DNA from: a bacterium | GTDB taxonomy: Bacteria > Hinthialibacterota > Hinthialibacteria > Hinthialibacterales > Hinthialibacteraceae | Assembly: GCA_016125385.1 (NCBI GenBank) | Contig: WGLV01000039.1 | Coordinates: 7,343-71,342 of the forward strand | DNA: 64,000 nucleotides | Direction: 5' to 3' | Position numbers and translations under genes: made by a program | The notes under the pieces: model-generated | The model's database searches: none | What the model saw: only the letters and a program-made list of their open reading frames with translations | Told to the model about the DNA's origin: nothing | Part shown: one piece after another, positions 5,015 through 57,186 of the stretch | Layout: each line of letters begins with the position of its first letter | How positions within the stretch are numbered: the first letter of the stretch is position 1

Positions 5015-6886
5015 CTACCGCAGTTTTAACACCCGCGCCAGCGCCCAGTCGGCGTGATCGGCGTCGATGCCGTCGCCTCCGTCTTCAGCGATCAGCGTTA
5101 ACCGGTTGGCGCGCTCGCGGTCGAGCCGAACCATGATTCGCCGCGCCGGCATGGTGGGAACCAGCGTGACCGCGCCGGGCTGTTCTTCGCCGTTCACCAA
5201 TACAGAAAAACGCACCTGCCCGTAAGATGGATTCTCTTTCACCAGAGGCAGCGTCTCGGCGTCGATGCCTGCCCACGCCTCGAACGCGTCGTACCCGGGC
5301 GGCACGTCATAGTCAATGCGCGCGTTGGCGTGCGTCCCGATGCCGTAGCGATAGCGTACGCCGTCGATACAAAGGGGCTCGCCGTCAACAGAAAGATCGC
5401 GCCCCAATAAAAAGCCGGGCGGCGGGTTTTTCAGTTCGGGAGGCATGGGAGGCCAGTCCTGCGTGGATGCGGCGGGGGTAACATGACTCAGGTAGAGCAA
5501 ACCCGGATTCTCGGTTCGCGCTTCGCCCCGTAGCCACAATACAATCGTCAGCGCGGCCAGAGTCCATCCCGCCGTTTTCGCCATACGAAAAAATCGAGCG
5601 CGGGGCTCGTCATCGTTACCGAACGTCTCGCTCGCCATAAAAACAGCGAAGTCGAGCGTATACCACGCCGCGCAGGCGACGGAGAATGCCGTGACGGTCG
5701 TCTCCAGCGCGGGCGGCGGTGAAATGAGCGGCGCGATCGTCATCAGGTTGGCGAGGTAAGGAATAGACAGCATAACGTAGAATGCCATCGCGCGGCCGTT
5801 CAACGCGGCGGGAATCGCGAACAGAGGGAAAAACGCGAATAGATAACGCTCGTGTACGCGCGTGGGCAGCATAAAAAAGATCAGGCCGGCCGCCGCCGCC
5901 AGGGTGAACGCGTCCAGCGCGCCGCGTCTTCGAGCCGCGCCGCGCAATATCCATCCGTATGCGATAACGAACAGCGCCATGCCCAGGTTTTTGTACGTCA
6001 GCCAGTGCGCGGCGTACCCATCGGTCATGAAGCCGTCGCCGCCATATAGCCATCCCCATGCGCGTCCGTCAAACGTGTTGGGGTTGGCGTGCAGATACCA
6101 GAGATTAAACGCTCCCACCGAGAGTTGACGCCCCAGGTTGAAGTTAAACAGTACGCTGTTGGCGATGACCGCGCCTAACCGGCCCGTCAGCCAGAAAGGC
6201 GCCAGCGCCGCCGCCGATCCGGCCAGTACTCCCCCCGCGAGCCGCGTCGTGCGTTGATTCCCGTGCATCGTCCAGCCCACTAGCATAAACAACGGGATGA
6301 AGGGCAGCGTCTGAATCTTCGTCCAAAGCGAAAGAGACAGCAGACACCCCGCCCAGAAGGCGCGTCCATCGATGAGGAGTATCAAGGAACCAGTAAGAAA
6401 GAATCCAAAAATTGAGTCCACCTGCCCGTAATACGCACTGAGATAAATCAGCGCCGGGTTCAACAGATACAACCCCATCGCCCACAGGCCCGCGCGCCGG
6501 TTCCATCTCCGGCTCGCGAATCTCAAGAGCCAGACGCCCGCTATCGCTTCGAACAGAAACGTGAGGCTTTTGCGCAACGTCAGAAAATTCGCCGAGTTGA
6601 ATTCCGAACCGCCAACCAGTGCGAACCCTCGACCGAGAGCGTCCAGCATGTAAAGATACCCGGGTGGATAATTAACGAATCGATTGGGCAGTTGGGTTTC
6701 CGGATCGTCATAAATCGACAATACGCCCTCATGGACCGCGTAATCGGTCCAGACGGCGAAGTCGCGCGCGTCGGATGGATAACCCGCCAGAGGCCAGAAA
6801 GGCGCGCGGAGAATCAGGGCGGCGAGCAGAATCACCCACGCCCCGCGAGGAAGCGATATGAATGAATTGGGCGGCGAGCCGATCAA
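5015..6886 (-). CDS. Polytopic GT-C-type (DUF2029 / GT87-like) membrane glycosyltransferase fused to a C-terminal NPCBM-like (GH98-associated) carbohydrate-binding domain.
   Basis: The N-terminal ~430 aa has ~11 predicted TM helices with a VNYPPGYLYM loop motif typical of GT-C mannosyl/arabinosyltransferases. The C-terminal ~170 aa carries YRYGIGTHANARIDYDVPPGYDAFEAWAGID and VRFSVLVNGEE, matching the NPCBM/NEW2 fold. The track start at 6886 is a TTG and overlaps the divergent ybgC-like ATG at 6858, so the true start is probably internal (a GTG in AWVILL). Confidence 0.7.
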   Translation of the reverse strand: MIGSPPNSFISLPRGAWVILLAALILRAPFWPLAGYPSDARDFAVWTDYAVHEGVLSIYDDPETQLPNRFVNYPPGYLYMLDALGRGFALVGGSEFNSANFLTLRKSLTFLFEAIAGVWLLRFASRRWNRRAGLWAMGLYLLNPALIYLSAYYGQVDSIFGFFLTGSLILLIDGRAFWAGCLLSLSLWTKIQTLPFIPLFMLVGWTMHGNQRTTRLAGGVLAGSAAALAPFWLTGRLGAVIANSVLFNFNLGRQLSVGAFNLWYLHANPNTFDGRAWGWLYGGDGFMTDGYAAHWLTYKNLGMALFVIAYGWILRGAARRRGALDAFTLAAAAGLIFFMLPTRVHERYLFAFFPLFAIPAALNGRAMAFYVMLSIPYLANLMTIAPLISPPPALETTVTAFSVACAAWYTLDFAVFMASETFGNDDEPRARFFRMAKTAGWTLAALTIVLWLRGEARTENPGLLYLSHVTPAASTQDWPPMPPELKNPPPGFLLGRDLSVDGEPLCIDGVRYRYGIGTHANARIDYDVPPGYDAFEAWAGIDAETLPLVKENPSYGQVRFSVLVNGEEQPGAVTLVPTMPARRIMVRLDRERANRLTLIAEDGGDGIDADHADWALARVLKLR

Positions 6887-7313
6887 TCGCCTGACCTTTC
6901 CCTACCGGGTTTTTTACGCCGACACCGACGCGGGCGGCGTGGTGTATTATGCGCAATACCTGCGAATGTTTGAACTGGCCCGCGCGCTATACATCGAAGC
7001 GTTCGGCATGTCGCTGCCCCAGCTTGAGCGGGAAGGATGCCTGTTCGTCTGCCGCCGCGCCGAGATCGATTATCACTCGCCCGCGCGTCTTGGCGACTCT
7101 CTCGACATTCACACGTGGATATCCGGCTCCGGTAAAACGTTTCTGACGTTTGAATACGAGATCGTTTGTTCCAGCCGCGTCGACGGCGAAGGCCAGCCTT
7201 TGCGCATCGTGACCGGCTTGACCAAAATGGCTTCGGTGGGCCAGAAAGACGGCCGCCTCATGCCCAGCCGAATTCCAGCCTGGCTGTTCGATCGGCTGGC
7301 TCAGCCCGTCTGA
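6858..7313 (+). CDS. YbgC/4HBT-family hotdog acyl-CoA thioesterase.
   Basis: FPYRVFYADTDAGGVVYYAQYLRMFELAR... is the 4-hydroxybenzoyl-CoA thioesterase/YbgC signature. A GAGGAAG RBS lies upstream of the ATG at 6858. Confidence 0.8.
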   Translation: MNELGGEPINRLTFPYRVFYADTDAGGVVYYAQYLRMFELARALYIEAFGMSLPQLEREGCLFVCRRAEIDYHSPARLGDSLDIHTWISGSGKTFLTFEYEIVCSSRVDGEGQPLRIVTGLTKMASVGQKDGRLMPSRIPAWLFDRLAQPV

Positions 7314-7383
7314 CCGCCGCCGCGCGCCCGGCGCCGATTGACCGGATACCGTCTCCATGATATAGCAGTTGTCAAACTGTTTG

Positions 7384-9762
7384 ATGAAGGGAATGTGGAA
7401 CGCCGTGACTCGCCTTTTGCTCGCCGCGCTGGCGCTTTTTTCGTTTTCGCTCGCTGGAACCGCTCAGGATCAACCGGCCGCTGAACCAGCCGCGCCTCCC
7501 GAACCGCCCATCGAGGTCATGAAAGGCCGCCCCGAATACGTGGTCGGCTCCAATGTGGTCATGGTGTACCGCGACGCTGGCAAGCAGGCGACTCTCGCCC
7601 AGGGCGAGACCGCCGTCACCGCCGATGAAATCGAATATAACGCCGATTCGCGCATCTTTAACGCGACCGGCGACGTCAAACTGTGGGACAAGGGGCTTAT
7701 CCTGCGCGGTGAAACCCTGCGTTATGACCTGAACGACCAGACCGGCGAGATCCATGACGTTCATGAAGCCGAACTCGACGAAGGATTCTTCTTTCAGGGC
7801 GAGCGGCTCGAGTTTCACCCACGCGCGGCGGGAAGGCTCGAATCGGCCAGCGGTGAAGCCACCGTCCGCGAATATACGTTGTATAACGGGTACGTCACCG
7901 GAAACGATCTGCCTTATCCCTATTACAAAATGAAATTCGACCGGCTGGTGGTCGCGCCCAAGGTCCGATACTGGGTGTACGACATGATTCTGGTCACGCA
8001 ATCGTGGCCGTTGATGTATTTGCCGTTTTATTCGCAATCGCTTCAGGAAAACAAAGTCGCCTACTATCTCTACGCCGCGTCGTATTCTCAACTGGGATTC
8101 GCCATTTTCAACAAGTTGAACATCGTTCCCAGCGATGAATACATGATCGACCTCTACGGCGATTACTACACCAAGGCGGGTATCGGCAAGGGCGCCAAGT
8201 TTACCTTTGACGTCGAAGGCGACTACGGCCCGCAGGGCCAACTGTACGGCTATCACATCAAGCAGGAAGCGCCGGATAACGACCGCATCTTCGACGGAGA
8301 CGACCGGTATCATTTCGCGCTCGAATACGCTCAGGATCTGCCCTATGACATGCGCTTGACGGTGAAGGGCCACAAACTGTCCGATTCAGAATACCGCGAC
8401 GATTACCGCAACCCCGAACGAGTGCGCGGCATCGATACGCGCGATTCAGAAAACGAGTTGACCTCCTTCGTTAACCTGACCAAGCGCTTCGACGATCAGA
8501 GCGCGCGTATCACACTGGGAACCCGGCTCGACGATTTTTACTCTAACGGCTTGCCTTACGTTGAACGGAAACCGCAGGTTCACCTCGAACAATACCCCTA
8601 CAACATTCTGAATTCAGGCCTGTACGGCAGCCTGCAACTCGATTACGGCCGCTACAACCGCGAACAGGGTATCACCTTCCCCCTTGATGAATACACCCTG
8701 TTTCAACAGACGCAGTTCGCCGACGAGTTCACCCGTTACGACGCCAACGCCAAACTTTCATATCCGTTTTATTTTCCCTATCAGATTACGCTCGAACCCT
8801 GGCTGGGTTATCGTGCGACGCAGTATGACGACGCCGTCCATCTCGCCGACGATCCCGCCGCGCCCGGCTACCAGTTGACGCCGTTTGATTTCGGCTCCGA
8901 GTCGCGCATGATGGCCCAGGCGGGCATGGACCTTTCCACCAAGCGATCGTGGGAGTTCGATCCATTTCTCGACCGCTTTCAGCGCATGCGTTTTCAGATC
9001 GAACCGATGTTGCAGTACAGCTACTTTTTACCCGACACCGATCTGGAAGAGTTGAAGGCGTCGAACGGCGGGCGTTTTCCGTACGTCGACCCCACGGATA
9101 TGTATCGCGCCGAGATGCACAACGTGTCGGCTCTGCTACGCACCAAGGTGCAGGGCAAAGACGCATACGGCTCCACGTGGGACTTCCTGCGGTTCACCAC
9201 CGGGCTGGCGTATGAGGCGTTTCCCGATGACAACCTGATATATGACAACTTTCTTTATTACGACGATTTCGCGAACAGCAAAAACCACCGTTTCACAGAC
9301 TGGATGGAAGAATTCTCCATCTTCCCGTTCCCCTGGTGGTCGATCGGCAACACGATCCGGTACGACATTGATGACGGCGAACTGCGTTCCAGTTATACCT
9401 TCACCCAGTTTGAAGTCATGCAGCGCGCCCGTTTCACGCTCGGGTATTACACCTTCCGCTACCCGTTCCTCGATCTGAGCGAACAGCAGGACGTCGCACT
9501 GGTCATTAATTGGGATATCGATCCCAAGTGGGGGCTGTTTTATGAGATGCGCTACGATATCGATGACGAGCGCTTCCGCAGAAACGTGATCGGCCTGATC
9601 CGCAATATGTATGACTTTTACGCCACGCTTGAATTCGAGCACGAAAATCACCCAACGCTGGGCGACGACTATGCGATCCATATCGGTATTCAGCTGGTGG
9701 GGCCGGGCCGCAAACGGCCTGACCGCCCCGTGGTGGGCGTCCCCAGCCTGTTTGCTTACTGA
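7384..9762 (+). CDS. LptD/OstA-like outer-membrane LPS-assembly protein: N-terminal OstA/LptA-like beta-jellyroll plus a large C-terminal beta-barrel.
   Basis: It has a signal peptide (MKGMWNAVTRLLLAALALFSFSLAGTAQ). It has the OstA-N pattern (ADEIEYNADSRIFNATGDVKLWDKGLILRGETLRYDLNDQTGE). The C-terminal ~600 aa is aromatic-rich with alternating beta-strand character and ends ...PSLFAY (a C-terminal aromatic, an OMP signature). The track ORF starts at a TTG at 7369; the first ATG is 7384. Confidence 0.7.
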   Translation: MKGMWNAVTRLLLAALALFSFSLAGTAQDQPAAEPAAPPEPPIEVMKGRPEYVVGSNVVMVYRDAGKQATLAQGETAVTADEIEYNADSRIFNATGDVKLWDKGLILRGETLRYDLNDQTGEIHDVHEAELDEGFFFQGERLEFHPRAAGRLESASGEATVREYTLYNGYVTGNDLPYPYYKMKFDRLVVAPKVRYWVYDMILVTQSWPLMYLPFYSQSLQENKVAYYLYAASYSQLGFAIFNKLNIVPSDEYMIDLYGDYYTKAGIGKGAKFTFDVEGDYGPQGQLYGYHIKQEAPDNDRIFDGDDRYHFALEYAQDLPYDMRLTVKGHKLSDSEYRDDYRNPERVRGIDTRDSENELTSFVNLTKRFDDQSARITLGTRLDDFYSNGLPYVERKPQVHLEQYPYNILNSGLYGSLQLDYGRYNREQGITFPLDEYTLFQQTQFADEFTRYDANAKLSYPFYFPYQITLEPWLGYRATQYDDAVHLADDPAAPGYQLTPFDFGSESRMMAQAGMDLSTKRSWEFDPFLDRFQRMRFQIEPMLQYSYFLPDTDLEELKASNGGRFPYVDPTDMYRAEMHNVSALLRTKVQGKDAYGSTWDFLRFTTGLAYEAFPDDNLIYDNFLYYDDFANSKNHRFTDWMEEFSIFPFPWWSIGNTIRYDIDDGELRSSYTFTQFEVMQRARFTLGYYTFRYPFLDLSEQQDVALVINWDIDPKWGLFYEMRYDIDDERFRRNVIGLIRNMYDFYATLEFEHENHPTLGDDYAIHIGIQLVGPGRKRPDRPVVGVPSLFAY

Positions 9763-28937: not shown

Positions 28938-29189
28938 ATGCTGGTACTGAGCCGGAAACGAGACGAGAGCATCATCATCGGCGATGACGTGGTCATCACG
29001 GTGGTTGATATCAAGGGCGAACAGGTGAAGATCGGCGTCACCGCGCCCAAAACCGTCTCGATTCATCGTAAGGAAGTGTATGAGGCCATTCAGCAGGAAA
29101 ACCGCGCGGCCTCCCAGACCCAGCTGCAAAATTTGGCCGGGCTGGTGAAAGTATTGAAAAAACAACCCTCCTCCGACTCAACCAAATAA
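28938..29189 (+). CDS. csrA: Carbon storage regulator CsrA (post-transcriptional regulator), FliW-partnered type.
   Basis: [49 protein letters not shown] is the canonical CsrA sequence. A strong AGGAGG RBS precedes it. Confidence 0.9.
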
Positions 29190-51680: not shown

Positions 51681-51810
51681 CCCCCAAAGTTTGGGGGAAG
51701 TGCAGGAGAGGGGCTCGGCAAACGCTATGTTACCGAAAAAGGTTCTCCCCCCGTCTTACACCCGCCTTGGAAATTCATAAACAGCGGGGGCGGGTTTGAA
51801 ACTCGCCCCC
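51681..51810. other. Structured secA 3' region with two GC-rich hairpins: the perfect palindrome CCCCCAAAGTTTGGGGG, and GGGGGCG-N11-CGCCCCC followed by a T-rich tail.
   Basis: Hairpin 1 is at ~51681-51697. Hairpin 2 is at ~51786-51810, followed by gattgtttgagtttcag. Hairpin 2 looks like a bidirectional intrinsic terminator. Hairpin 1 is unexplained. Confidence 0.4.
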
Positions 51811-51846
51811 GATTGTTTGAGTTTCAGCGTTCATCGAAAAACACGT

Positions 51847-52410
51847 CTAAAATCCGCCGGAATGATGCGTCCATGCCCGGGTCGCCGTATTCGGATTGGC
51901 TTCAGGCAAAATCTTCTCAATCGCTTTCGCCAGTTTTTTCGGATCCTGCGATCCGATTAACAGGTACTTCCCGTCTTCATAATGCAGCCTCACGCCCTGA
52001 TCGCCGGATACGTTATACGCCATGCCATGCGGACCGTATTGAATTCCCCAGCCTCCGTATTCCTGAATGGGCCGGTAGGTACAGGCTTCGACTCGCGTCA
52101 CGTTGTCTAGAGAAATTCTGATTTTCCACCAGTGAAAGGGAATCCACTGGATGTACAGGCCATCGCGCCGGACGGTGGTATTCATGTGCATGAGGAAGAG
52201 CGCAATCCCGCCGATCGCCTCGCCGAACAGACACCAGCCAATGGAATGGAGAGGTTGCGTCCAACTGACCGGTTCGGGGTGATTCTGTATCGCGAATGTG
52301 ACCAGAATGATAATGGGGCCGATGAGAAAGACGCTGATAATAAATAACCAGAACCAGAATTTTCGCATGTACTGCGATTCATGGAATAGAACTGTGTCTG
52401 AAGCGCTCAT
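51847..52410 (-). CDS. Membrane-anchored protein with two N-terminal TM helices and a C-terminal bacterial PH-like (bPH/DUF304-type) domain; paralog A.
   Basis: LFHESQYMRKFWFWLFIISVFLIGP...RRDGLYIQWIPF...RVEACTYRPIQEYGGWGIQYGPHGMAYNVSGDQGVRLHYEDGKYLLIGSQDPKKLAKAIEKI. It shares the full architecture with the adjacent paralog. Confidence 0.6.
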   Translation of the reverse strand: MSASDTVLFHESQYMRKFWFWLFIISVFLIGPIIILVTFAIQNHPEPVSWTQPLHSIGWCLFGEAIGGIALFLMHMNTTVRRDGLYIQWIPFHWWKIRISLDNVTRVEACTYRPIQEYGGWGIQYGPHGMAYNVSGDQGVRLHYEDGKYLLIGSQDPKKLAKAIEKILPEANPNTATRAWTHHSGGF

Positions 52411-52440
52411 GATGAATATCCGTGGAACGGTTGTTCGCGA

Positions 52441-52953
52441 TCATGCTTCAGTGATCGACTGAATGGCTTTCTGCAATTTCTTCGCATCCTGAGAGCCGAT
52501 TAGAATTTTCTTCCCGTCCTCATACTCCAGCTGGACGCCTTCGTTGCCGGAGACGTTATAGGCGGTTCCATTGCGAAACGTGAATCGGATTCCCCAGCCG
52601 CCGTATTCCCAGATCGGGCTGTAGGTACGCGCTTCACAACGCGTCAGCCGATGGGTGGAAATCTCTTTCGTTGAAAACTGGAGAGGAAAGAACTGGATGT
52701 AGAGGCCGTCTTTGCGCACCTCGGTGGTCAACTTCATCGTCAGCATCAACAGAATTACGATGAGCCCTATCCCGCCGGTGATCGCTAAATTGAACAATAA
52801 CTCGTTCATCGAACGGCTTTCGGGGGCTTTGTTGATAAAATCGAAGATCGAGCCGCCCAACGCGCTTCCAAAAGAGATTGTGATAATCAGCCACAACCAC
52901 CATTGTCTGAAATACTGAACTTCCCTGAACAGCGGTTTCTCCGATGATGACAT
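52441..52953 (-). CDS. Membrane-anchored PH-like domain protein; paralog B (tandem duplicate).
   Basis: LFREVQYFRQWWLWLIITISF...RKDGLYIQFFPL...RCEARTYSPIWEYGGWGIRFTFRNGTAYNVSGNEGVQLEYEDGKKILIGSQDAKKLQKAIQSI. It is ~45% identical to paralog A across the TM-plus-PH domains. Confidence 0.6.
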   Translation of the reverse strand: MSSSEKPLFREVQYFRQWWLWLIITISFGSALGGSIFDFINKAPESRSMNELLFNLAITGGIGLIVILLMLTMKLTTEVRKDGLYIQFFPLQFSTKEISTHRLTRCEARTYSPIWEYGGWGIRFTFRNGTAYNVSGNEGVQLEYEDGKKILIGSQDAKKLQKAIQSITEA

Positions 52954-52965
52954 GGCGGTTCTCTC

Positions 52966-53151
52966 TTACCCTTCGTCGTGATCGTCGGTTGAATTTTTCA
53001 CCGCATCCTTATTGCGGCGCCGTCTGACGGCGTCACGCAACAGGAATTCGATCTGGCCGTTGATGCTGCGCAACTCCTGGTCGGCCCAGGCGCTGAGCTC
53101 ATCCCACAGACGAGGATCGAGACGCAGTAAAAAACTCTTTCGTTTCGTCAT
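52966..53151 (-). CDS. Arc/MetJ-type ribbon-helix-helix DNA-binding protein (61 aa).
   Basis: KRKSFLLRLDPRLWDELSAWADQELRSINGQIEFLLRDAV: an N-terminal beta-strand (SFLLRL) plus two helices, typical of RHH repressors. A basic tail follows. Confidence 0.6.
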   Translation of the reverse strand: MTKRKSFLLRLDPRLWDELSAWADQELRSINGQIEFLLRDAVRRRRNKDAVKNSTDDHDEG

Positions 53152-53222
53152 AATCGTTACATGAATCCGGTTTCAATCGATCCCCGCGCCGCGATCAATG
53201 CGGCGCGGAGATCGACGAATGG

Positions 53223-54101
53223 TTAGTTATAAAGCGTGCCCGTGTTGACCACCGGCTGGGCGTTTTCTTCACTGCATAACACCACCAGCAGGTTGCTGAC
53301 CATGGAGGCTTTGCGTTCTTCGTCGAGTTCGACCACCTGCTTTTCGCCGAGTTCCTTCAACGCCATGTCGACCATGCCGACCGCGCCTTCGACGATACGT
53401 TTGCGCGCGGCGATGACAGCCTGCGCCTGTTGGCGGCGCAACATGGCGCCGGCGATCTCGGGCGCATAGGCAAGGTGGCTGATACGGGCTTCTTCGACGC
53501 GCACGCCAGCCTTGGCGAGGCGGTCCTGCAATTCAGCCATCAGCAGGTCGTTCACGCCGTCGGTCCCCTGGCGGAGAGACACTTCCTCGTCTTCTGAATC
53601 ATACGGATATTTGCCCGCCAGGTGACGCACGGCGGCTTCGCTCTGAATCTCGACGTAATCTTCGTAATCGTCGACTTCAAACAGGGCGTGGGCGGTATTG
53701 GTGACTTTCCATACCACCACGGCGGCGATTTCGATCGGGTTGCCGCTCTGGTCGTTCACCTTCAGCCGGTTACCGTTAAGGTTGCGCGACCGCAGTGAAA
53801 TATTTTTAACTGAAGTAAACGGGTTTCGCCACAGAAAGCCGTTCTTTTTCACCGTTCCCTGATAGTGTCCAAACAGCACCAGAGCGCCCGCCTGATTGGG
53901 CTGAAGTATATACAGCCCGACAAGGATCAGAATCCCCACCCCCAGCACGAAAAACGAGGCGATGAACAACCATGGGCTGTTGTATTCTTTCAGCTGCGTG
54001 ATGCCCAGATAAAACACATACGCCGTGACCAACAGCACAAGAATTCCAAGACACAACATGCCCCAGCCAGACATCGGTTGTATTTCTTTTTCTTCGACCA
54101 T
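53223..54101 (-). CDS. SPFH/band-7 (stomatin/prohibitin/flotillin/HflK/C-like) membrane protein.
   Basis: An N-terminal TM segment ([20 protein letters not shown]... and a second hydrophobic stretch) is followed by the SPFH core ([25 protein letters not shown]...[18 protein letters not shown]) and a C-terminal coiled coil. Confidence 0.8.
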
Positions 54102-54201
54102 CGGTGCGTCCTCCTGAAGGGAACAATTTCATTTCAATACCAATATGATATCACTTTTATATCAAAAAGGGCGCGGTGTCAATGTTTTTTTAAAAAAAAA
54201 A

Positions 54202-54862: not shown

Positions 54863-55558
54863 ATGACTCGATTCAAATGTCTGTTGTTCGTCCTGCCTTT
54901 GGTTGCATTTCTCCCGCCGCAAGGCTGTTCACAAACGATTTCGTATCAGATGGGAGTAGACGGATATGCGAATTATCACGACGTTGTGATCTCATCGCAA
55001 TACTCAAACGCCAGTTATGGCAACCTGGGTAACATCTCTAATAATAACCGCCATCTGTTGATCCGCTTTGGGTCGCTCACCGCCGAACCGGGAATCTACA
55101 GCGCGACGCTGGAACTTTACCCACAAACGGTGATCTCGGCGGGAACGTTTAATTTGTATCGAATCAGCCGGACGAACTGGAACGATCCAGCCGCTACCCT
55201 CAATCCACCGTCTTCAAACAGCATGTACCCTACCTGGAATTACGAAAATTATAATTTACTCGCATGGAACACGCCCGGCGTGGTGGGTGGAACGGACGTC
55301 ATCGGCCAGTGGGGCTCGCAATATCATTCCGATTCAAGCGCACTGGTTTTTAACGCGACCACGGTGGTGAGCGGCGGAGATGAATCGATTGCGTTGGTAT
55401 TGACGTGTTCAGGCGAATATACGTTGTATCACGCCAGTAACTATCCTTCAACGGCGTATCTGCCGCGTCTGACGTTGACGCTGCTTGAAGCGATCGGCAT
55501 GAGCAGAGGCGGGCTGGATTGGAGCGCGATGTGGAACCCATTCCGCGCGTTGCGATGA
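54863..55558 (+). CDS. Secreted hypothetical protein (possible lipoprotein; predicted beta-sandwich) in a lower-GC patch.
   Basis: The signal peptide MTRFKCLLFVLPLVAFLPPQGC has a possible lipobox Cys. The body is S/T/N/Y-rich. The NNRHLLIRFGSL segment is weakly reminiscent of DNRLRE-type carbohydrate-binding domains. Local GC is ~50% versus ~60% in the flanks. Confidence 0.6.
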   Translation: MTRFKCLLFVLPLVAFLPPQGCSQTISYQMGVDGYANYHDVVISSQYSNASYGNLGNISNNNRHLLIRFGSLTAEPGIYSATLELYPQTVISAGTFNLYRISRTNWNDPAATLNPPSSNSMYPTWNYENYNLLAWNTPGVVGGTDVIGQWGSQYHSDSSALVFNATTVVSGGDESIALVLTCSGEYTLYHASNYPSTAYLPRLTLTLLEAIGMSRGGLDWSAMWNPFRALR

Positions 55559-56603: not shown

Positions 56604-56903
56604 CTAATTTATCTCGGTCTGCATAATTATATCCCGATTCTGAGCATCATGCAGAACGCGGATGATTTCGATGCGTTCTGATAATACCTGATAATATATG
56701 ACATGATTTTGGAATGGAAAGCTGCGTATTCCTGCTTGCAATTCCCGGCGGATTCTTCCAATGTGAGGATTAATAGTAATCTTTTCAAATTGATTAAATA
56801 TCATTTCAACGAAGCGATCAGCCCGATTAACGCTGTCTTTCGCAATGAAATTCCAAAGTTCTTCAAGATCAGTTTCAGCGGCGGGCCGAAGGAAAAATTT
56901 CAC
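56604..56903 (-). CDS. parE: ParE/RelE-superfamily type II toxin.
   Basis: MKFFLRPAAETDLEELWNFIAKDSVNRADRFVEMIFNQFEKITINPHIGRIRRELQAGIRSFPFQNHVIYYQV...IEIIRVLHDAQN matches the ParE consensus (the DLxxIxxYI-like N-terminus; the R...P conserved core; YRVxxxxIxIxRVLH). Local GC is ~42%. Confidence 0.75.
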   Translation of the reverse strand: MKFFLRPAAETDLEELWNFIAKDSVNRADRFVEMIFNQFEKITINPHIGRIRRELQAGIRSFPFQNHVIYYQVLSERIEIIRVLHDAQNRDIIMQTEIN

Positions 56904-56931
56904 GGTGTTAAGCCTGAATCTGTTGATGCGA

Positions 56932-57186
56932 TTATTTACGCATTTTAGTCAGAAATTCCAGTGCGCTTGTCTCTTTCGCGGGGCCGCTGTCCAGCCCTTT
57001 TTGAATTTCGCCGCGCAACATATTGATTGTTTCTTCTTCACGGAGATCGCGTTCTTCAAGCAAGCGGATCGCTTCTCCTATCGCTTCATCAGGCGATGCG
57101 TATTTCCCTATTGAAACAAGATGCGCTATTTTTCTTTCAAGTTCTGGAGTTAACGGCAGACTCATGTTTCTCTCCAAATTTATCAT
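56932..57186 (-). CDS. parD: ParD-like RHH antitoxin (COG3609).
   Basis: MSLPLTPELERKIAHLVSIGKYASPDEAIGEAIRLLEERD matches the ParD/COG3609 N-terminal RHH (SxxLPxELxxxIxxxVxSGxYxSxSEVIRxALRxLE). It is immediately upstream of parE on the same strand. A CTTGT-N11-ACAAG inverted repeat lies in its upstream region (~57190-57210). Confidence 0.7.
   Translation of the reverse strand: MINLERNMSLPLTPELERKIAHLVSIGKYASPDEAIGEAIRLLEERDLREEETINMLRGEIQKGLDSGPAKETSALEFLTKMRK

Follow-up and report, generated by a model that had tools for sequence, protein, structure and literature searches.

A stretch of 64,000 nucleotides from a bacterium of the Hinthialibacteraceae (GenBank assembly GCA_016125385.1, contig WGLV01000039.1, positions 7,343 to 71,342; called the window in what follows) carries on its minus strand an operon in which the gene for an SPFH/Band_7 membrane-scaffold protein is followed by that for a small ribbon-helix-helix (RHH) protein and by two tandem genes for proteins with two predicted transmembrane (TM) helices and a PH-like domain, which we assign to the family DUF6141. 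As a comparison with homologous loci shows, the conserved unit is the pair of SPFH and RHH genes, and the PH-like gene is an optional accessory. On the whole we consider it probable that the SPFH operon is self-contained and regulates itself negatively, and that the DUF6141 proteins act in it as optional accessories of an SPFH cage.

All four open reading frames (ORFs) were confirmed; they are co-directional, and they lie exactly where the original prediction, made from the letters of the sequence, had placed them. The SPFH gene (53223-54101) encodes 292 amino acids and the RHH gene (52966-53151) encodes 61, the latter a predicted autorepressor of the Arc/CopG type. DUF6141 paralog B (52441-52953), of 170 residues, is predicted to consist of an N-terminal strand, two TM helices and a PH-like domain, and its tandem duplicate, paralog A (51847-52410), has 187 residues. 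The spacers are 71 nt between SPFH and RHH, 12 nt between RHH and paralog B, and 30 nt between B and A.

The SPFH-RHH pair and its predicted operator

The assignment of the first protein to the SPFH/Band_7 group was confirmed with Pfam, where residues 65-237 match Band_7 (PF01145) with E 3.6e-25 and a score of 89.5 bits, above the cut-off of 23.6. In its AlphaFold2 (AF2) model an alpha/beta domain at residues 63-211 is preceded by helices at 12-40 and 44-61 and followed by two more at 214-253 and 261-276, which would correspond to two N-terminal TM helices, the SPFH domain and long C-terminal helices, followed by a disordered tail. Foldseek matches this model to the full-length cage formers stomatin, HflK, QmcA (in the QmcA-YbbJ complex, 8z5g) and prohibitin, which are its top matches, and to erlin and flotillin. 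By analogy with the solved relatives stomatin, HflK/C, QmcA and prohibitin, its copies would be expected to form a ring or cage attached to the membrane. Its sequence similarity to HflK and QmcA is marginal (E ~3e-4), and for this reason we place it in a distinct subfamily. More than 8000 homologues of the subfamily were found (more than 8000 proteins at 90% clustering), which are 58-72% identical across phyla and come from Bacteroidota, Deinococcota, Bacillota and many uncultured phyla; the C-terminal tail is conserved among them.

The gene neighborhood of this subfamily was studied in 80 metagenome loci, to which 6 contigs from the closest relatives were added. In eight loci the sequence breaks off no more than 343 nt past the SPFH stop codon, and these were set aside; in every one of the 78 informative loci, which have at least about 200 nt of DNA beyond SPFH, the next gene downstream on the same strand encodes an RHH protein, usually at a distance of 2-25 nt or overlapping. 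The pair is also carried by three annotated records, from Deinococcus, Parabacteroides distasonis and Bacillus thuringiensis, which are plasmid records. Within 3 kb of the cassette, the 86 loci revealed no further recurrent gene family. It had been suggested that the NfeD-type partner usually found with SPFH proteins is replaced in this operon, and indeed no NfeD match was given by Pfam among the neighboring proteins of the window, nor does any NfeD-like cluster recur in the 86 loci. The linkage of SPFH to RHH appears specific to the subfamily, since a branch of the Listeria/Enterococcus type (45-48% identical; L170-L173) has no RHH gene downstream of SPFH. Members of this branch were also met with in viral contigs, where they lie at the contig ends, and in brief “phage” records (H16-H19); these probably represent host DNA flanking a prophage.

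That the 61-residue protein is a small Arc-type RHH protein, as originally proposed, holds at the family level. The Pfam profile RHH_5 is matched by 18 of 19 family members (best E 7.7e-9) and Arc by three of them (3.3e-6); the window protein itself matches a PHROG Arc-like repressor (5e-5), and it is co-linear with the strand and helices of the Arc repressor when aligned to Arc QFNLRWPREVLDLVRKVAEENGRSVNSEI. A search by sequence for a matching solved structure returned nothing significant. The family, which comprises about 1700 clusters at 50% identity, has the consensus M..RK.FLLR[IL]DP.LW..L..WA.DELRSvNgQIE[FY]LL; this would fit an N-terminal strand in which hydrophobic residues alternate with basic or polar ones, and two helices with an S/T-x-N helix cap. 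Residues R10, R28, S29, Q33 and E35 are invariant in 79 sequences. The tail of about 15 residues is short, variable and disordered, with no recognizable partner-binding extension. In the NCBI records the homologues are labeled either “Arc family DNA-binding protein” or “HicB family antitoxin”.

The AT-rich region at 54102-54200, where the promoter of the operon had been placed, contains on the minus strand an AGGAGG ribosome-binding site for the SPFH gene (54110-54115, 8 nt 5' of the ATG at 54101), the hexamer TTGACA (54177-54182), which reads as a candidate -35 element of the operon promoter, and a composite, operator-like motif. This predicted RHH operator (54136-54163, minus strand) is made of three GATATC-like boxes at 11-bp spacing: the left box GATATA (54158-54163), the central palindrome TGATATCA (54146-54153), and the right box GGTATT (54136-54141). 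In an alignment of the 200 nt upstream of SPFH from 75 homologous loci, the central palindrome is present in 66. It occurs 78 times in the 491 kb of the loci, 71 times within those 200 nt, which amounts to 4.5 per kb upstream of SPFH vs 0.015 per kb elsewhere, an enrichment of about 300-fold. The consensus of the whole element is GATATCA-N3-RTGATATCAY-N3-GATAKCA, with boxes 11 bp apart at a median distance of 38 nt before the start codon, and the same boxes are seen in the records of Deinococcus, B. thuringiensis and Flavobacteriaceae, and in a weaker form in Parabacteroides. The composite pattern (54137-54163) occurs once in the 64 kb of the window, where none is expected. Many homologous loci (for example L103) have the arrangement TTGACA-N17-TATCAT, by which the -10 hexamer comes to lie within the central box of the operator; the distance from TTGACA in the window fits either TATAAA (15 nt) or TAAAAG (17 nt), both of which overlap the left box.

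The only other copy of the palindrome in the window, at 29006-29013, lies without flanking boxes inside an ORF that looks CsrA-type from a reading of its translation only. It is probably there by chance, because it is intragenic and lacks the flanking boxes, and on these grounds a second member of the regulon at this site was rejected.

Short repeats at the spacing of a helical turn over a promoter are the classic target of cooperative RHH dimers, such as those of Arc, CopG, MetJ and omega. Because the linkage of the two genes is absolute and the promoter is overlapped by repeats of just this type, autorepression by the RHH protein is the best-supported step of the mechanism that we propose below, and the conserved operator is strong evidence for it at the sequence level. 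The autoregulation suggested in the original prediction is thus supported by an operator that is conserved across phyla and sits inside the promoter region named there.

The DUF6141 paralogs and their place in the operon

The two genes that follow RHH had been taken for bPH_2/DUF304 proteins of the YdbS/YdbT type, and this identity had to be rejected. Neither paralog matches bPH_2 (PF03703) at E<=1, neither matches bPH_5 (PF10882) in Pfam, and the family that was found instead is DUF6141 (PF19638), which paralog B matches at 42.4 bits, above the cut-off of 27. Paralog A scores 23.0 bits, under this cut-off; we nevertheless place it in DUF6141 by its sequence, for it is 48% identical to B (BLASTP E 7e-46) and, like B, it keeps all 21 residues that are invariant in the family alignment. 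The homologues retrieved also carry PF19638. The tandem duplication itself is real, with an identity slightly different from the original estimate of about 45%, and it is visible even in the DNA, as 74-76% identity over 118 and 63 nt at an offset of 543-546 nt. In a neighbor-joining tree of DUF6141, which like the corresponding tree of SPFH is built from short proteins and is indicative only, the two window copies and the single copy of the closest relatives form one clade, and from this the paralogs appear to have arisen by local duplication.

The soluble domain of the family is exceptionally conserved. The 21 residues are invariant in 28 diverse sequences from bacteria and archaea, and they include the EYGGWG and AYNVSGN parts of the family motif P..EYGGWG...AYNVSGN.G...GK.LLIGSQ. 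Conservation of this degree points to a specific site for a ligand or a partner.

The proposed architecture of two TM helices and a PH-like domain was borne out by the AF2 model (predicted local distance difference test score, pLDDT, 90), in which a strand at residues 9-14 and helices at 18-41 and 49-72 precede the PH strands; the soluble part is modeled as a seven-stranded beta-sandwich with a C-terminal helix cap, as in the PH-like fold. The best whole-chain Foldseek match of this model is EROS (8kei_D; 186 columns, E 8.7e-4, TM-score 0.46/0.48). In the structure of EROS two helices split the cytoplasmic PH domain (PMC11161758), and EROS has been described as orthologous to Ycf4, an assembly factor of photosystem I, and as having cytoplasmic N and C termini and TM helices at 21-39 and 45-63 (PMC5379978). 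The charge distribution of DUF6141, with an acidic or neutral loop between the TM helices and basic flanks, taken together with the analogy to EROS, suggests that its PH domain probably also faces the cytoplasm. No Pfam match to Ycf4 or DUF4564 was found at E<=1, the DUF6141 profile does not find EROS among the PDB sequences, and a search for solved structures matching DUF6141 by sequence gave nothing significant; homology between DUF6141 and EROS is therefore unproven, as no sequence similarity between them is detectable.

Of the 78 informative loci, 17 include within the operon a gene for a PH-like protein with two TM helices. In nine it is a bPH_5 gene (PF10882) between SPFH and RHH, in three a DUF6141-like gene in the same position, and in five a DUF6141 gene after RHH. 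The closest relatives have the order SPFH-RHH-DUF6141, with a single DUF6141 gene that overlaps RHH by 1-4 nt, and share the upstream order of the window (PolX, epimerase, a 229-aa protein, cobalamin adenosyltransferase). The order SPFH-RHH-DUF6141 is also seen in an unrelated genomic context (L166), and one close relative (L165) has a glycosyltransferase gene after RHH and no PH gene. In the neighbor-joining tree of SPFH, the three PH arrangements fall into different clades, interspersed with loci that lack a PH gene, and the SPFH-linked members of DUF6141 are likewise scattered over the tree of that family. The neighborhood of SPFH, bacterial PH and RHH genes that was expected from the window is therefore found only in part: the link does recur, and with two different PH families, but the four genes are not a conserved unit, for the core is SPFH and RHH, the PH gene is optional, and the tandem copy was seen only in the window.

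A proposed mechanism, its alternatives, and the surroundings of the operon

In the mechanism that we favor, the SPFH protein would insert into the membrane via its two-helix hairpin and form a ring or cage there that fences off a microdomain, as stomatin, HflK/C, QmcA and prohibitin do. Several RHH dimers would bind the three GATATC boxes, one helical turn apart, and because these boxes overlap the core promoter, the RHH protein would keep the amount of cage protein steady. The DUF6141 proteins would be membrane-anchored and would serve as optional accessory subunits or client adaptors of the cage; in overall shape they would belong with the EROS/Ycf4 class of membrane-protein assembly chaperones, and their genes stand where classical SPFH operons have the gene for NfeD. 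The accessory gene was duplicated in tandem in this genome, and both copies were kept. More speculatively, the PH proteins might dock to the cage, either as NfeD-like accessories or as holders of clients in the manner of EROS and Ycf4, and paralogs A and B might have sub-functionalized or might pair with each other. DNA binding and repression, the formation of the cage, the membrane topology and the contact between PH and SPFH proteins are steps that we infer, and the chaperone or NfeD-like role of the PH proteins, which is speculative, is the weakest step of the explanation.

It is worth pointing out that a number of observations weigh against this explanation. The confidence of the SPFH model is moderate (pLDDT 73), and the window RHH protein scores 23.6 bits on RHH_5, just under the Pfam cut-off of 26. 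The central operator box of the window comes after the best -10 candidates and not on them, and a consensus scan found no canonical sigma-70 promoter. The match to EROS is structural only, at a TM-score of about 0.47, and has no sequence support, and the similarity between DUF6141 and bPH_5 is weak, with an hhalign probability of 22%, so that a homology of these two families was not adopted. The largest body of such evidence concerns the PH genes. At least 597 DUF6141 loci were found in species-representative genomes; of the best 80 of these, which come from both bacteria and archaea, 79 had neither SPFH nor RHH within 6 kb, none had a tandem duplicate, and the clustering of the surrounding ORFs revealed no conserved neighbor beyond lineage-specific synteny, by which DUF6141 is normally a solitary gene. 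Considering also that 61 of the 78 SPFH-RHH cassettes have no PH gene, the PH partner appears to be dispensable and may act independently.

The sole locus of the 80 with SPFH and RHH nearby is L051, from a metagenome-assembled genome of the Flavobacteriaceae, with the variant order SPFH, DUF6141, hydrolase, RHH; the additional gene between DUF6141 and RHH (6514-7446 of this locus) encodes an alpha/beta-hydrolase (Hydrolase_4/Abhydrolase_1). In six loci of the Planctomycetota type (L024, L036, L043, L062, L065 and L067), a gene for a secreted-looking protein of about 290 residues, which ends in a Cys-rich ...C.IC.P, lies about 10 nt upstream of DUF6141 on the same strand, a pairing that is lineage-specific.

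The solitary habit of DUF6141 and the majority of cassettes without a PH gene are what speaks for the DUF6141 genes being functionally unrelated passengers, co-transcribed by accident, so that only SPFH and RHH form a system, and the close relative in which a glycosyltransferase gene occupies the place after RHH can be read in the same way. Chance co-transcription does not sit well with the repeated placement of two different families of PH proteins with two TM helices inside the operon, often between SPFH and RHH and with overlapping or 10-nt junctions, nor with the fact that the PH-bearing loci belong to separate SPFH clades and, in the case of L166, to an unrelated context, while no other gene family recurs beside the cassette. 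We regard this explanation as unlikely.

Another possibility is that the RHH protein is a sensor of the membrane state, which is captured by the SPFH cage or by the PH proteins, so that transcription follows the state of assembly or membrane stress in a manner resembling PspA-PspF. The RHH protein is unusually conserved and its linkage to SPFH absolute; among the conserved positions, W22, Q33 and E35 lie on the surface and are not needed for the fold, and together with the conserved C-terminal tail of SPFH they hint that, besides binding DNA, the RHH protein may contact another protein. Its conservation would, however, also follow from a conserved operator by itself, and the partner-binding extension that one might look for is not recognizable in it. 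We consider such a sensor rather improbable. The same low weight is given to a more elaborate scheme, in which the SPFH cage and the split-PH proteins resembling EROS and Ycf4 would form a compartment for the assembly or quality control of membrane proteins: the PH proteins would hold nascent or damaged polytopic clients in the microdomain, and the RHH protein, captured or released by SPFH or PH, would set transcription. If true, this doubtful scheme would provide a new class of SPFH accessories besides NfeD and a prokaryotic counterpart of the EROS/Ycf4 chaperones.

It is very unlikely that the cassette is a toxin-antitoxin-like or anti-phage module with SPFH as a membrane-damaging effector and RHH as antitoxin and autorepressor: its order of a large protein followed by a small RHH autorepressor does resemble reversed type II toxin-antitoxin loci, the antitoxin labels of the NCBI records are accompanied by weak ParD_like and HicB matches in Pfam, and the cassette occurs in variable genomic contexts and on large plasmids, but the RHH tail offers no toxin-binding domain, the only large partner is SPFH, a canonical scaffold in which no toxin domain can be recognized, and its identity across phyla is unlike that of fast-evolving conflict genes. 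The anti-phage part was rejected, as none of the four proteins matched a PADLOC-DB 2.0 model at E<=1 and the family is nearly absent from phages, with 7 of 50,697 records and 4 viral contigs in which the gene is at the contig end.

Two GC-rich hairpins were found in the operon and next to it. The spacer between SPFH and RHH contains a GC-rich hairpin on the minus strand (53177-53215), identified by folding and as an inverted repeat, with a perfect-looking 16-bp stem (minimum free energy -39.3 kcal/mol, z -4.6). It is present as a single copy in the window and is not a repeated element, no credible Rfam match was found for the hairpin or the leader, and the relatives, in which this spacer is 5-60 nt long, do not have it. 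As an RNA structure within the operon, it may reduce the expression of RHH, or its translation relative to SPFH. The second GC-rich hairpin (51785-51811, both strands) lies between the SPFH operon and the convergent SecA gene and is a likely terminator: it was matched by a terminator scan on the plus strand, and its minus-strand form, after which comes GCTGTTTAT, has a folding energy of -28.7 kcal/mol (z -4.4). The operon likely ends here.

Upstream of the operon, a ParE toxin gene (99 aa, PF05016, E 2e-19) and a ParD antitoxin gene (84 aa) lie at 56604-57186 on the minus strand, between the genes for PolX and the epimerase. They look like a recent insertion, since the syntenic loci L161-L164 have no called gene between these two. 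The plus-strand gene at 54863-55558 encodes a protein of 231 residues that starts with a signal-like segment and has no more than a weak match to CBM96; in L161-L164 the same syntenic position, which is all that was compared, is taken by a 229-aa gene with no recorded Pfam match.

Comparison with known systems

SPFH proteins are ubiquitous in bacteria, yet most of them have no known physiological role, and to our knowledge NfeD is their only recognized operon partner; we know of no described SPFH operon with an RHH partner. Full-text searches of the literature for SPFH with RHH, SPFH with bacterial PH domains, SPFH with antitoxins, or DUF6141 found nothing relevant, which agrees with the original statement that no characterized system of SPFH and bacterial PH proteins is known. 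Hinderhofer et al. listed SPFH6-12 as small subfamilies without documented members (PMC2636767), and a 2026 survey of the SPFH proteins of Pseudomonas emphasized that their roles remain unknown. The types of components in the present operon are thus familiar, and as far as we could find, the obligatory SPFH-RHH pair, the conserved operator and the PH-type accessory are undescribed. An operator that is conserved across phyla and an invariant RHH partner make a testable circuit and give a handle for finding the inducing condition, and experiments are feasible in the cultured carriers, which include the B. cereus group, Deinococcus and Parabacteroides; in B. cereus/thuringiensis the homologous pair is WP_000660677.1 with WP_001085171.1. 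The PH-like proteins with two TM helices, having been recruited repeatedly, are candidates for a second class of SPFH accessories, and their EROS/Ycf4-like shape would link SPFH microdomains to the assembly of membrane proteins.

Among proteins of known type, the paralogs resemble YdbS/YdbT and the bPH_5 family in that their PH-like domain comes after two TM helices at the N terminus, and with bPH_5 they share the equivalent operon slot, which it occupies in nine other cassettes. Unlike these families, they carry a near-invariant motif of their own, P-x-x-EYGGWG...AYNVSGN.G. In the model, they are also like EROS (CYBC1) and Ycf4 in their N-terminal strand, their membrane hairpin of two helices and their length of about 170-190 residues, and the hairpin may split a PH domain that probably lies in the cytoplasm, but the window proteins have no detectable sequence similarity to either. 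EROS and Ycf4, for their part, are not known to us to work with SPFH proteins.

On the side of regulation, the closest parallel is provided by the autorepressors Arc, Mnt, CopG and omega, which are likewise beta-alpha-alpha proteins of about 55-65 residues and have short repeated boxes one helical turn apart over their own promoter. The difference is that the RHH protein here is encoded after a membrane-scaffold gene and not in a phage or plasmid control region, and that the operator to which it is predicted to bind, with its 3 x GATATC, is this family's own.

The operon as a whole is best compared with the SPFH-NfeD operons, the logic of which has been described (PMC2636767) and which include QmcA-YbbJ and YqiK-YqiJ of E. 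coli, FloA-NfeD and FloT-YuaF of B. subtilis, and PH1511-PH1510 of Pyrococcus. As in these, an SPFH protein of the cage-forming type is co-transcribed with a small membrane-anchored protein that has a compact, beta-rich soluble domain. The membrane partner is, however, a different one, a PH-like protein of the DUF6141 or bPH_5 family in place of the OB-fold of NfeD, and it is optional, while the obligatory partner of SPFH in this operon is a DNA-binding protein of the RHH type.

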